Positions 42,868 to 50,014 of a stretch of DNA of 64,000 nucleotides are shown piece by piece; within the stretch, counting starts at the first letter, position 1, and each line of letters starts with the position of its first letter. The stretch lies in the NCBI GenBank assembly GCA_015660995.1, contig JACTUC010000002.1, positions 43,480-107,479 of the forward strand, written 5' to 3'. The stretch comes from Candidatus Methanomethylicaceae archaeon (GTDB lineage Archaea; Thermoproteota; Methanomethylicia; Methanomethylicales; Methanomethylicaceae). Below the pieces are notes generated by a model. It had not been told where the DNA came from. It saw only the letters and a program-made list of their open reading frames with translations, and ran no database searches. The position numbers were made by a program, and so were the translations under genes.

Positions 42868-43021
42868 CTTTTAATTATCTTCCTACGAATCATTAAATAA
42901 TCTCAGGGACTTATTGCAGGTAATTGCATAAAGGATTGAGCCATGACAGACTTAAAATCGACAAAAACACAATTGGGTAGTCAACTACGCGATAAAGGTC
43001 TTGGGCCATGTGTTTACCCTG
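42868..43021 (+). repeat. Dispersed repeat copy 1 (segments B+C)
   Basis: About 85% identical by hand alignment to 45805..45961; contains TCAACTACGCGATAAAGGTCTT. Confidence 0.9.
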
Positions 43022-43120
43022 CTACCAAGCACACTCTGCAAACTCGCTTTTGCTATGTTCAAAATCATAGAACATGGCAAACGGTATAAGCGGAAAATGG
43101 GCCAGTATTGACCGAGTCCT

Positions 43121-43759
43121 ATGAAGACAATTGAGGCAGTAGTCGTAGTCCTGATAATTGCCCTAGGTGCATCCCTTGCTCTCAATTATTCTCTTTATGC
43201 GAGCAACCAGCAACTGAAGTCAGCTGGACTAATCCCCCAGAGCGTATCCACCACCAACGAGTCCCTGGGCTTGAGCCTCAGCGTAGCATTGAGCGCGACA
43301 TACCTTCAGCCAGGGCAGGGCATCAGCATAACCATCAGCGAGGCAAACACAGTGAATATACTGAACACAGTCAACGTGGGCACAGAGTGGCAGTTCTCGC
43401 CGTTGAGCGACAGCCCTTGTGGCGTTGGCAGTTATCCTATGGGGCTTGCAATTTGTCAGGGGTATTATACAGCCTCAAACATTTCCACCGCTGAAGCCTT
43501 GAATGTTTATGCTTATGGTATGTATGCTTGCCCGATGCTTTATCCACTAATTTACTCCTACACCTTCCAGCCTATGAGCAACATGGCAAGCATAAACCCT
43601 TCAGGTGGCTTCTTTATGCCAATGAACTCTGCATTGGCTGGAAACGGATACTGGGGCATGACGGCAAAAGACTTCCACAGCTTCTCGCCTGGGATTTACA
43701 CGGTGGCAGGCGGTGACGAGTGGGGGCAGTTAGCCTTACTCCACTTTGTAGTCGTCTAG
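43121..43759 (+). CDS. Secreted/membrane-anchored hypothetical protein
   Basis: N-terminal hydrophobic helix, Ser/Thr/Asn-rich beta-type body, three Cys. Confidence 0.7.
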   Translation: MKTIEAVVVVLIIALGASLALNYSLYASNQQLKSAGLIPQSVSTTNESLGLSLSVALSATYLQPGQGISITISEANTVNILNTVNVGTEWQFSPLSDSPCGVGSYPMGLAICQGYYTASNISTAEALNVYAYGMYACPMLYPLIYSYTFQPMSNMASINPSGGFFMPMNSALAGNGYWGMTAKDFHSFSPGIYTVAGGDEWGQLALLHFVVV

Positions 43760-43772
43760 CGAGCCCTCGGGG

Positions 43773-44006
43773 CTAGTCTCCCATAACTATCATAGTCATG
43801 GTCGAACTTACTTTATCGAGCTGCCGGATCTTTTTTGTTATCATCTCTCGAAGCTTATCAAGCGTGCCTGATTCTACCATGACGACTATATCATAGACTC
43901 CATAGACCACATAAGAAGCTTTGACTTCGGGGATCTTCTTTATGTTGTCGAGAACTTCCTTCTCTGCGCCGGTCTCGACATTGAACAACACAAAAGCCAG
44001 AGGCAT
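43773..44006 (-). CDS. Lrp/AsnC ligand-binding (RAM) domain-only protein
   Basis: AFVL-x-x-VE-x-G...V-x-G-x-YDIV...I-x-x-L-x-x-V-x-ST-x-T. Confidence 0.88.
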   Translation of the reverse strand: MPLAFVLFNVETGAEKEVLDNIKKIPEVKASYVVYGVYDIVVMVESGTLDKLREMITKKIRQLDKVSSTMTMIVMGD

Positions 44007-44088
44007 AATACCGCCCTATAGGTTATTGCGAATTTTAACGTACAACCTCTGTCGAAGGGCTTTCAAATGGCTCTTGGTAAGGCGAGTA

Positions 44089-44304
44089 TCATACTCCAAG
44101 GAGCACCAACAGCCCGATGACCAGACCATAAATGGCCAATGCTTCACAAAGTGTCGCCACTAGAAAGCCTTTAAAAAATTGTTCTGGTTTCTCGACTAAA
44201 GCAGATATGCATGCTGCCCCTACCTTTGCCAATGCATATGAAGCTCCAACAATTGCCAATCCCACAGATAGCCCCAAAGTAGCTAGAACTATATCTGCAA
44301 CCAT
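44089..44304 (-). CDS. Orphan A/V-type ATP synthase proteolipid (c/K subunit)-like protein, single hairpin
   Basis: Two TM helices with small-residue pattern, loop E-K-PE, conserved carboxylate in CEALAIYGLVI. Confidence 0.85.
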   Translation of the reverse strand: MVADIVLATLGLSVGLAIVGASYALAKVGAACISALVEKPEQFFKGFLVATLCEALAIYGLVIGLLVLLGV

Positions 44305-44308
44305 ACTT

Positions 44309-44449
44309 TCATCCCCCCTTTTCCACTTCAGTCTTCTTCTTCAACCTCAATGCAAAGGCATATCCAACAACGCAAGTTACTAAGACAATACTAATCTGAA
44401 ACAAAAAAATCTCTGTGAGCACAATCCCGAGTGTTGCCAATTCATCCAC
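44309..44449 (-). CDS. Putative 46-aa single-TM peptide (not in ORF track)
   Basis: GTG start overlapping the stop of 44442..44684; (M)DELATLGIVLTEIFLFQISIVLVTCVVGYAFALRLKKKTEVEKGG; stop 4 nt before the c-subunit ATG. Confidence 0.55.
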   Translation of the reverse strand: MDELATLGIVLTEIFLFQISIVLVTCVVGYAFALRLKKKTEVEKGG

Positions 44450-48361: not shown

Positions 48362-48395
48362 GTCAGCGTTAAAATGGATCATTGAGTTAGTAAAC

Positions 48396-49073
48396 ATGGC
48401 TGAAATAGTCGATGAGCCTATCTTTAGGAATAGGACTCGTGTGTTTGATGATCGCATTTATGCTGGTGAGCTTTTAGCCAAAAAGCTTCAGGAATATAAA
48501 TGCAAGAAGGATGCTTACATTCTTGCTATTCCGGCAGGCGGTGTGCAAGTAGCCTTCATAGTCTCAAAGAGACTGAAAATTCCTTTGGACCTCACCATCA
48601 CCAGAAAGTTGCACGTCCCATGGAACAGGGAAGTCGGTTTCGGGGCGGTATCGTGGGATGGGACAATATTCCTTAACGAGCCTCTCATCGCTTCCCTTGG
48701 ATTAACGAGGGATGACATAGATCGTTGCGTGGTGGAAGAAAAAGAAGTTATCAGAAGAAGATTGAAAAAGTTTAGGGGCGATAAACCCTTTCCCGATCTT
48801 AAGGATAAAACAGCAATCATCGTCGATGACGGATTGGCATCAGGCTTTTCAATGCTAACCACCTTGAAAACGATAGAACAAATGGGTGCGAAGGAAATAA
48901 TAGTCGCTGTTCCAACAGCCCCGATCAGCGCAATCAACCTCATAAGATCCTATGCAGATAAGGTTGTTTGCCTAAACATCAGATCAGGACCTGTCTTCGC
49001 TGTTGCTGTTGCATACAAAGAATGGTATGACTTAGAGGACGATGACGTAATGGACATTTTAAAACTTCGATAA
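48396..49073 (+). CDS. Type I phosphoribosyltransferase-family protein
   Basis: F-x-DR-x-x-AG-x-x-LA, AIPAGG, IIVDDGLASG PRPP loop. Confidence 0.85.
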   Translation: MAEIVDEPIFRNRTRVFDDRIYAGELLAKKLQEYKCKKDAYILAIPAGGVQVAFIVSKRLKIPLDLTITRKLHVPWNREVGFGAVSWDGTIFLNEPLIASLGLTRDDIDRCVVEEKEVIRRRLKKFRGDKPFPDLKDKTAIIVDDGLASGFSMLTTLKTIEQMGAKEIIVAVPTAPISAINLIRSYADKVVCLNIRSGPVFAVAVAYKEWYDLEDDDVMDILKLR

Positions 49074-49113
49074 ACCAAAGTTGACTATGACTAACTAGCT
49101 CTTTGTCCTACCT

Positions 49114-49155
49114 TCAACTATACGATAAAGGTCTTCTGGAGCCATGTCTTTGCCC
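49114..49155 (+). repeat. Dispersed repeat copy 4 (segment C)
   Basis: TCAACTATACGATAAAGGTCTT identical to copy 3, followed by GCCATG-x-CTTTGCCC. Confidence 0.88.
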
Positions 49156-49440
49156 GCGTTGGGTTTGGGATTAAAATTTAACCCCCACACAATTATTCTA
49201 CTACCTACTCTCTAGCTCCTACGCCCTTACTCTTCTATTCTATATCTCTCTCCCTTGCTCCATATCACGTATAGCGTATATCACTAAAAAATATCAGTGT
49301 TCGCTACCCCTATTTTGCAAAGTATGAATTCGTTTGTGAAGACAATATTCTTTTTGCTTTCTTAAACCTACTTCAATTAGGCTGAGTTTAACCGTGTTTT
49401 TATCAGAAGCTAGGATGAAGAAAAAAAGATGATGTTATTG

Positions 49441-49788
49441 CTAAACTGGTTTTGCCTGTTTGATAAGTGTATATACATCCTGCCCACTCATTACAGGGAA
49501 TGAACGTGCACATGTGCCTCCAAGTAATGCGTGTACTTCCGGTTCCATCGAAAAGGCCATAAAAGAGTCGAAGCTGGGTGCCTCAAATGTAATATAGGCT
49601 GTATGCATAGGATGGTCGGTCCACATGCTGACTTGTTTAACGCCATATTTTTTGGACAGCGCTTCGGCTTTTTCGAAATAATTCAAGTACATTTTCTGGT
49701 ATTTCGAGTTGAAGGCGGGGCAGGTTTCAGCGGTATGCTTGGAAATCATCATAAAATTCATTGGATTTGTCATTTCTAAAAACTCCAT
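49441..49788 (-). CDS. Small hypothetical protein, probable dimeric alpha+beta barrel (DUF3303/GYD-like)
   Basis: H-x-x-ETCP...H-x-AY-x-x-FEA-x-S pattern; AT-rich surroundings. Confidence 0.55.
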   Translation of the reverse strand: MEFLEMTNPMNFMMISKHTAETCPAFNSKYQKMYLNYFEKAEALSKKYGVKQVSMWTDHPMHTAYITFEAPSFDSFMAFSMEPEVHALLGGTCARSFPVMSGQDVYTLIKQAKPV

Positions 49789-49955
49789 GTCATTATATGT
49801 AAAGGGTTACTTATAAAGAAGTAGTTTTTTTTTAAAAAATCAATATTTTATATTTATAAATTTATTAATAGTTTATAGTTAAAATTAATACATTACCTAA
49901 AGAATATTTAGTTGAAATTTATAACGTAAAGTATTAGGAAATGTTAATTGTTCGG

Positions 49956-50014
49956 TCGTCCTCCTCATGAGGAAGGTGACATAAAGTACATAGTATTCTA
50001 TTTGTTCCTTTTAA
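49956..50014 (+). repeat. Dispersed repeat copy 5 (segment A)
   Basis: 52/59 identical to 45753..45811; contains the 12-bp palindrome TCCTCATGAGGA. Confidence 0.9.

Follow-up and report, generated by a model that had tools for sequence, protein, structure and literature searches.

The window analysed in this study, i.e., a 64,000-nucleotide stretch from a Candidatus Methanomethylicaceae archaeon (contig C24, positions 43480-107479, of the genome designated G000, which is 1.63 Mb in size and 98% complete), contains a 7.2-kb interval at positions 42816-50043 in which four copies of a short intergenic repeat, termed M1 here, alternate with different sets of genes. The interval lies between mmp15, which encodes methanogenesis marker 15, and the gene for a DRG-type GTPase. 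This region is a recurrent integration hotspot, and the recurring core of M1 is a lineage-specific, module-delimiting site that is not confined to the window locus. In the following, C-numbers denote contigs of G000, L-numbers denote metagenome loci or contigs, G001 is the same-genus genome, and coordinates without a prefix are those of the window. The features of the interval and its two flanking genes are listed in Table 1.

The gene order ycaO-mmp15-DRG-thiN is kept in G001, in eight further family genomes, and in metagenome-assembled genomes (MAGs) of the named relatives Methanomethylicus and Methanosuratincola, and mmp15, which is 78-86% identical across nine family genomes, adjoins DRG in all nine. 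The spacer between DRG and mmp15 is only 80-110 nt in at least 15 relatives, in which the site is thus unoccupied, and the interval is therefore a lineage-specific accessory insertion; it is AT-richer than its surroundings (45.4% GC versus 53-54% in the flanks). The insertion hotspot proposed at this position in the initial annotation, which was made from the sequence alone, is borne out by the adjacency of the two genes in all these relatives.

Table 1. Features of the insertion between mmp15 and DRG and of its flanks (window coordinates; a dot in the strand column denotes a feature given without strand)
Feature	Position	Strand	Basis or remark
mmp15, BcrAD_BadFG-family ATPase, methanogenesis marker 15, left flank	41577..42815	-	PF01869
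Junction 1 (attL-like): mmp15-side spacer X, core CTTTTAATTATCT (42868-42880), block B	42850-42880	.
Block B1, left-end sequence of E1	42881..42980	+	87-89% identity to 45818-45918
M1 form v1, copy 1	42971..43022	+	49.9 bits
E1 cargo span	43121..45205	.	Pfam; other contigs and arrays carry paralogs (72-91% DNA identity)
212-aa protein of a paralogous family	43121-43759	+	No Pfam match
AsnC-type ligand-domain protein, 77 aa	43773-44006	-	Pfam
ATP-synthase c-like protein	44089-44304	-	PF00137, E 1e-16
46-aa and 80-aa open reading frames (ORFs) beside the ATP-synthase c-like gene	E1	-
Ribbon-helix-helix (RHH) protein	44814-45017	+	Weak match, E 0.008
55-aa ORF	E1	+
M1 form v2: arm 45263-45274, spacer AGGTTA 45275-45280, arm 45281-45292	45250..45292	+
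Small membrane-peptide ORF, right end of E1	45333..45708 (span)	+
MazE/AbrB-type gene, right end of E1	45535-45708	+	PF04014; 91% identical paralog on C18
Block A2 with palindrome CCTCATGAGG and core CTTTTAATTGTCT (45805-45817)	45753..45817	+	86% identity to 49956-50020
Block B2, left end of E2	45818..45918	+
M1 form v1, copy 3	45909..45960	+	53.9 bits
4Fe-4S ferredoxin, E2	46185-46601	+	Pfam
Aldehyde:ferredoxin oxidoreductase (AOR; AFOR_N and AFOR_C), E2	46601-48361	+	Pfam
Phosphoribosyltransferase, E2	48396-49073	+	Pfam
M1 form v1, copy 4, without the AATTnGnnAG left extension	49104..49155	+	51.9 bits
M2, dispersed palindromic repeat GGGTTTGGGATTAAAATTTAACCCCCACAC, directly after M1	49156..49192	.	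Hairpin z = -4.2
115-aa ORF	49441..49788	-	No Pfam match; AT-rich upstream region 49789-49950
Block A3 with core CTTTTAAATATCT (50008-50020), junction 3 (attR-like)	49956..50020	+	DRG-side spacer Y follows
DRG-type GTPase (MMR_HSR1, TGS), right flank	50044..51204	-	Pfam; next to mmp15 in all relatives

The 22-nt core of M1, TCAACTAYRCGATAAAGGTCTT, occurs on the plus strand at 42981, 45919 and 49114 with no mismatch and at 45260 with three, and none of 100 shuffled sequences gave a match; the four positions named in the initial annotation, including the degenerate copy with an inverted half at 45260, are thus confirmed. The conserved unit spans approximately 41-50 nt and reads (AATTnGnnAG)TCAACTATACGATAAAGGTCTTCTGGGCCATGTCTTTGCCC. 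The annotation had described an array of these cores at this locus, where the four copies are real, but M1 is scattered over the genome in approximately 44 copies (approximately 44-46 were returned by a pattern search, by an nhmmer profile and by a sequence-only covariance model alike). All of them are intergenic and tightly bracket one to three ORFs, and successive copies are 440-3931 bp apart (median 882 bp). They form approximately 14 clusters, 12 of which hold at least two copies, and the orientation is uniform within each of these 12, for which the probability by chance is about 2^-27. With respect to gene direction, on the other hand, M1 is indifferent: the upstream gene runs in the same direction in 23 cases and in the opposite direction in 21, and the corresponding numbers for the downstream gene are 21 and 20. 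Because the orientation of M1 ignores the neighbouring genes on both sides and yet is uniform within each cluster, a promoter, a terminator and an untranslated-region element were excluded, and a property at the level of the array is indicated. An RNA element was rejected as well, since M1 has no counterpart in Rfam (the sole match in the window at the gathering thresholds is a tRNA-Gln) and the common form of the repeat is unstructured.

M1 has no copy in the same-genus genome or in 31 family genomes representing 10 genera, and it was not found in the species collection, in plasmids or phages, or in IMG/VR or Rfam. Single M1-like matches in the relatives were considered as a conserved dif site and dismissed as chance matches inside genes. 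The repeat is present in metagenome contigs from peat, wetland and sediment that belong to the same species and to related lineages; in the latter it scores 56-64 bits, while the flanking genes are only 74-94% identical. M1 is a species-specific family of sites whose action is exerted as DNA.

M1 exists in two forms. The form v2, which occupies 45263-45292 in the window, is a 12-6-12 inverted repeat, ACTATGCGTTAA-AGGTTA-TTATCGTATAGT; as ACTATACGATAA-AGGTTA-TTATCGTATAGT it is present at least five times in the genome, with further copies in metagenome loci, and its general sequence is TCA-ACTATACGWTAA-AGGTYA-TTATCRTATAGT with ATAA-N6-TTAT at the centre. It is the minority form, and its copies include those at window position 45260, C12:13578, C20:48807, C21:8266 and several metagenome loci. 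The v2 consensus folds as a perfect hairpin (z = -3.7 relative to shuffled sequence), whereas in v1, to which most copies belong, neither strand folds significantly (z = 0.38 and 0.14). The left arm and the AGGT of v2 are shared by v1, the right half of which is unrelated. The dif sites of archaea and bacteria and the plasmid dif (pdif) sites of Acinetobacter consist of 11-bp inverted arms, a 6-bp central cleavage region and a conserved inner palindrome, and v2 likewise combines two inverted arms, a 6-bp centre and a conserved inner palindrome; in its sequence, v2 is built like a tyrosine-recombinase core or a dif site. In the C20 and L070 arrays, the only two with a mapped chromosomal boundary, v2 is the last site and lies 72 and 75 nt, respectively, from the point at which homology to the relatives resumes. 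It also closes the series of sites in C12, C21, L042, L053 and L083, the last of which comes from a lineage that is 88% identical.

Comparison of strains places differences in gene content at M1. The independent assemblies L225 and L229, which represent a strain approximately 98% identical to G000, both share the segment C14:58016-60671, which is bounded by M1 at each end. The v1 copy at C14:60653 and the v2 copy at L225:5096 agree in the left flank and the left arm (…TCAACTATACGATAAAGGT), and the switch occurs exactly after AAAGGT, past which v1 and further modules follow in G000 and v2 and different genes follow in the L225/L229 strain. Between the last v1 and v2, L060 (99.6% identical in shared DNA) carries 6.8 kb versus 1.1 kb in C20, and in the comparison of L060 with C20:50815 the left half of M1 tracks the left flank and the right half tracks the right flank. 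L070, which is 94% identical, has a 4.3-kb array of v1, v1 and v2 downstream of tRNA-Gly, where G000 has 96 nt and no M1. In L078 and L225, a module of the C1 type is joined to a module of the C14 type across one M1. The C20 array (47.3-55.9 kb) is itself an insertion, as the genes on its two sides are direct neighbours in G003, G005 and G025, and it also splits a conserved leader from its synthase gene.

This leader (C20:48633-48700; ATCGAGGGGTAATTAATGGGGGATTACCAAATCG; compare L217:1440-1500 and L218:1420-1500) contains an 11-codon upstream ORF, MGDYQIE..., and in the relatives it stands directly 5' of a citramalate/isopropylmalate-synthase-like gene; in G000, a 7-kb M1 array lies between the two, and the N-terminus of the synthase is different. 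M1 sites lie on both sides of an IMP dehydrogenase gene at C21:904-2355, the closest homolog of which (88%) is found in one other Methanomethylicota MAG and the next homologs (approximately 71%) in "Nitrososphaeria" MAGs. Because the closest homolog has no neighbouring genes in common with it, the sequence comparison suggests that the IMP dehydrogenase gene moved as a single-gene module. In addition, at the edge of the C23 array, a gene for a TATA-box-binding protein (TBP) at C23:36360-36905 (plus strand) runs precisely up to a truncated M1 (36905-36933); the gene may be an extra TBP paralog in accessory DNA.

The window insertion has a further layer of repeats, blocks A and B, which are exclusive to this locus in searches of the rest of the genome and of the fetched loci. 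Positions 42868-43022 and 45805-45960 match over 157 nt at 87%, and positions 45753-45817 and 49956-50020 match over 65 nt at 86%; the longer duplicated blocks reported in the initial annotation are therefore real. A three-way alignment resolves the junctions as X|core|B, A|core|B and A|core|Y, where X and Y are the remnants of the spacer on the mmp15 and DRG sides; junction 2 (45753-45918), which is formed by A2 and B2, consists of block A, the core CTTTTAATTGTCT and block B. The core CTTTTAAWTRTCT, with a weaker ATTCTGT upstream, recurs at 42868, 45805 and 50008, i.e., at both ends and at the internal junction, as target-derived direct repeats. The empty spacers contain sequence homologous to both the core and the ATTCTGT stretch, namely the TATA-box region of the mmp15 promoter; for CTTTTAATTATCT at 42868-42880 this assignment is based on the spacers of G001 and L107. 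The attL, attP-like and attR pattern of the three junctions points to two tandem site-specific integrations, E1 (42868-45817, 2.95 kb) and E2 (45805-50020, 4.2 kb), that probably built the interval, and each of them duplicated a 13-33-nt piece of the mmp15 promoter. E1 and E2 have only the A-core-B-M1 region in common (86-89% identity) and differ in their cargoes, and this stretch is the putative common attachment region of the two elements. The earlier proposal that every event duplicates its target thus holds for the junctions, although the duplicated target is the promoter piece and not the 22-bp core. As that proposal had also stated, no recombinase lies in the interval: searches with Pfam and recombinase profiles found no integrase gene in E1 or E2. 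The possibility that the repeat is itself a tRNA fragment was discarded, as ARAGORN returned no match in the interval.

The cargoes named in the initial annotation were largely recovered by Pfam, namely the ATP-synthase c subunit, AbrB, AOR and phosphoribosyltransferase, together with a weak RHH match (E 0.008), but the predicted barrel protein, the 115-aa ORF, matches no family. A homologous module of this ORF occurs in L070 with its orientation relative to M1 reversed. The ATP-synthase c-like gene and its two tiny companion ORFs (44089-44684, minus strand) form an orphan group within E1, distant from every other atp gene. The AsnC-type gene and its upstream region (43773-44085) have four paralogous copies of 86-91% DNA identity (C11:3602-3986, C5:83656-83964, C7:79401-79715 and C23:35650-35894), the homology blocks of which end away from M1. 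The first gene of E1 belongs to a family of 212-263-aa paralogs (43121-43759 in the window, C20:49955-50746, C27:1304-2023, C18:9973-10062 and C2:77503-77580) that have no Pfam match and share a conserved C-terminus, ...GGDEWGQLALLHFVVV; a member of this family is recurrently the first gene past an M1 site.

Two other repeats accompany M1. M2 (TTTGGGTTTGGGGATTAAAATTTAATCCCCACACAC), which contains an internal 10+10 palindrome, occurs at least 27 times genome-wide, e.g., at C1:194 and 640, C13:4391, C27:33779 and, in many copies, C5:80.8-98 kb. It often stands immediately 3' of M1, or an M2 half stands 5' of M1, and its placement is in keeping with a marker of module junctions. M3 (CAGACATCTACAACATAAAAGGA) has 14 copies versus none for the reversed control and follows M1 in six of them; its sites include C14:58071, C5:71586, C13:7295, C20:49862, C21:5103 and 8171, C23:34281 and 35532, and C7:2423. 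In two lineages, M3 is part of the tRNA-Ala(UGC) trailer. The C14 array begins 49 nt past tRNA-Ala(UGC), M1 is likewise located downstream of tRNA-Ala(UGC) in L069, which belongs to a lineage that is only 74% identical, and in C23 two M1 copies are preceded by 3' fragments of tRNA-Ala with the trailer. Because the trailer aligns with the left arm of M1 (TCAA.TAT.CG..AAA) and with M3, and lacks only the right half of M1 (approximately 30 nt), M1 looks like a derivative or mimic of an attachment region 3' of tRNA-Ala.

Three tyrosine recombinases, of approximately 190 aa, 294 aa (C1:5672-6557) and 438 aa (C25:133053-134369), are encoded in G000. The shortest (C20:139629-140198; 188-205 aa across the family, catalytic domain only) is the sole one conserved across the family, forms a tandem pair in two genera (G007:C1:51548-52573 and G002:C5:55546-56581) and scores 96 bits against the archaeal XerA profile, for which the cut-off is 220; it is presumably a housekeeping XerA-like enzyme. 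No ATAA-N6-TTAT palindrome was found beside the short recombinase genes, and the only other such palindrome, at C25:1488, is not conserved in relatives. The 294-aa integrase adjoins an intron-containing tRNA (C1:6620-6729, minus strand), which was missed by ARAGORN with default settings, and is located 2.4 kb from an M1 array. The 3' 44 nt of this tRNA is repeated exactly at C7:9911-9954 (plus strand), and the C1/C7 pair looks like the attL and attR of a larger element, or of tandem elements, holding the C1 and C7 M1 arrays. A longer contig that extends C1 past its start has a 452-aa integrase in the sequence immediately beyond that point. Three ORFs of 412-413 aa beside M1 were considered as a hidden recombinase and discarded because they are mutually unrelated; the 412-aa ORF of C1 and a 485-aa ORF of C7 have no Pfam match.

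We give an even chance to the interpretation that a module-exchange system, the recombinase of which would be supplied in trans, uses M1 as its dif-like recombination site. Modules of one to three genes would be gained, lost and swapped through recombination between M1 copies, and this exchange would leave co-oriented runs of v1 that are usually closed by v2. The trans-acting recombinase could be one of the two accessory integrases (294 and 438 aa) or else the short XerA-like enzyme, and the site would apparently have been derived from the attachment region 3' of tRNA-Ala. Catalysis of the exchange within the spacer, as well as the identity of the enzyme, is what we infer. The fuller proposal, i.e., that M1 is the site of an undescribed archaeal gene-module system with v2 sites and v1 half-sites, a tyrosine recombinase acting in trans and co-oriented arrays at several chromosomal hotspots, tRNA trailers and promoters among them, is offered more tentatively and falls somewhat short of an even chance.

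A number of observations weigh against a dif-like exchange at M1. In the window, L074 and L225, v2 is not terminal and is followed by further v1, and a terminal v2 looked for in E2 was not recognisable there. The crossover that formed E1 and E2 took place in the promoter core, 100 nt from M1, and at the window locus M1 could therefore be an arm-type or accessory site and not the site of exchange. Breakpoints inferred from single nucleotide polymorphisms are partly outside the spacer, at M1 positions 1-9 or at the 3' edge, some paralogous blocks do not end at any M1, and the same junctions would also arise if homologous recombination took place in the shared 19-24 nt. A chromosomal dif of the host was not found in a scan for 11-6-11 palindromes or in the neighbourhoods of the short recombinase, and no recombinase is linked to M1 at any readable locus. 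The initial annotation had envisaged a hotspot with varying cassettes; the insertion is indeed absent from relatives, but the locus is fixed, being identical in all 19 contigs with an identical AOR and in the Logan contigs of four runs, with no variation in cassettes. Neither an excised circle nor an empty-site junction was found in either set of contigs, and apparent excision joints in the Logan contigs were set aside as uninformative, as they arise from paralogous copies.

Alternatively, M1, M2 and M3 may be selfish or neutral repeats similar to repetitive extragenic palindromic (REP) sequences or miniature inverted-repeat transposable elements (MITEs), in which case the shuffling would be due to homologous recombination and the window insertion would be an unrelated event carrying copies of them; we regard this as unlikely, though by no means negligible. 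The dispersal of approximately 44 M1, 27 M2 and 14 M3 copies is in keeping with such repeats, as are the spread of inferred breakpoints over several M1 positions and the failure to find a cognate recombinase, and inverted M2 halves, reminiscent of terminal inverted repeats, stand on either side of some M1 copies. However, few are bracketed in this way, and the aligned M1 copies have neither terminal inverted repeats of their own nor duplicated flanks. Strict co-orientation in 12 clusters would be unexpected from random MITE insertion, v1 has no hairpin, the switch from v1 to v2 falls exactly at the spacer, and M1 is better conserved between lineages than the flanking genes (74-88% identical). 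No gain or loss of M1 alone in colinear DNA was seen among strains, the contigs compared being 99.9-100% identical to G000, and the genome has no match to the Y1 transposase of the insertion sequence (IS) family IS200/IS605 (PF01797), the only transposase family searched. It had been foreseen that the repeats might prove to be the ends of a known IS or MITE; they are scattered genome-wide, as such ends would be, but match no known IS, MITE, RNA family, plasmid or phage.

It is rather improbable that M1 is only an arm-type or accessory-protein site beside the true cores, i.e., the 3' end of tRNA-Ala and the mmp15 promoter core, comparable to the arms of lambda attP or to the sites of excisionases (Xis) and recombination directionality factors (RDF). 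The distances would suit such a role: in the window, v1 is located 100 nt inside the duplicated core and v2 is located 545 nt before the next core, and in C14, C23 and L069, M1 lies 36-370 nt after the 3' end of tRNA-Ala or a fragment of it. Small DNA-binding proteins of the RHH and AbrB types are also frequent as cargo. Most M1 copies, on the other hand, have no adjoining duplicated core, the same M1 is found in elements with different cores, and the breakpoints between strains are in M1 itself. Still more doubtful is a cis-regulatory or chromatin element, such as an operator or insulator for a lineage-specific DNA-binding protein, with no role in recombination. In its favour, all copies are intergenic and near gene ends, and a palindromic form exists, but the orientation disregards the flanking genes while being uniform per array, neither the same genus nor the remainder of the family has the element, and it coincides with rearrangement breakpoints.

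M1 is neither an integron attC, a CRISPR repeat, a known RNA nor a known IS or MITE. The resemblance to CRISPR and integron arrays suggested in the initial annotation was not upheld: the intervals of 0.4-3.9 kb contain genes and form no tandem array, unlike the regular repeats, 25-50-nt spacers and cas genes of CRISPR. A classical integron, or a cluster of attC sites lacking an integrase (CALIN), is scarcely credible even though such arrays have been reported in archaeal MAGs and the M1 sites likewise share one orientation and are spaced by less than 4 kb (median 882 bp) around modules of one to three genes, including antitoxin-like ones, because none of the three recombinases is an IntI (best scores, 63.8 bits against a cut-off of 265 for TIGR02249 and 29.8 against 435 for NF011946), the single strand of the common form v1 does not fold, R''/L''-L'/R' boxes are missing, and the direction of the cargo genes is random.

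The approximately 44 M1 sites delimit ordinary genes in a peat-dwelling relative of methylotrophic methanogens, among them AOR, IMP dehydrogenase, ABC transporters, a prenyl synthase and antitoxin-like genes. To our knowledge, the movement of single genes and small modules is poorly known in archaea, for which only classical integrons in MAGs and whole integrative elements have been described. If the exchange is driven by an enzyme, M1 would represent a new module-exchange system with a defined 30-bp substrate and possibly a tool for site-specific recombination in archaea; if it is not, M1 is a clear example of short lineage-specific repeats that structure flexible genomic islands.

Among known systems, the pdif modules of Acinetobacter plasmids resemble the M1 modules in many respects. 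They are 0.8-3 kb long, carry one or two accessory genes (transporters, oxidoreductases and toxin-antitoxin genes) and no recombinase, are delimited by many short sites of dif architecture with a 6-bp spacer and an inner ATAA...TTAT palindrome, and are shuffled between replicons and strains. M1, in contrast, is archaeal and chromosomal, is co-oriented where the Acinetobacter sites are inversely oriented, has 12-nt arms, has only one dif-like arm in most copies (v1), and is confined to one species-level lineage. The half-site form v1 recalls the integrative mobile elements exploiting Xer (IMEX) at dif, such as TLC, CTX and VGJ of Vibrio and the gonococcal genetic island (GGI) of Neisseria, in which one arm and the centre are common with the full site and the other arm has diverged; in TLC and GGI sites, the XerC arm and the centre are good and it is the XerD arm that diverges. 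Integrase-less IMEX also pile up in tandem and in one orientation, with a full site usually kept at one end, but they occupy a single chromosomal dif, whereas M1 arrays are found at many separate loci and their modules are not phages. Tandem integrative elements, those of archaea included, and integrase-less elements of the cis-mobilizable (CIME) type at tRNA genes share with the M1 units the target-derived direct repeats that bound them (the promoter core in the window and the tRNA-Ala fragments in C23), the empty site in relatives and the lack of an integrase in the units, and module exchange between tandem elements has been discussed for archaea. The M1 units differ from them in their very small size (0.5-4 kb) and in the extra internal M1, which is independent of the core and is itself a breakpoint. 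Integron arrays and CALINs likewise have co-oriented short sites less than 4 kb apart between small, mostly unrelated cassettes, whereas M1 arrays have no IntI, folded attC or attI and contain genes in either direction. An enzyme-driven M1 system would be the equivalent, on archaeal chromosomes, of integron cassettes, of the dif modules of Acinetobacter and of IMEX arrays, with a different type of site.

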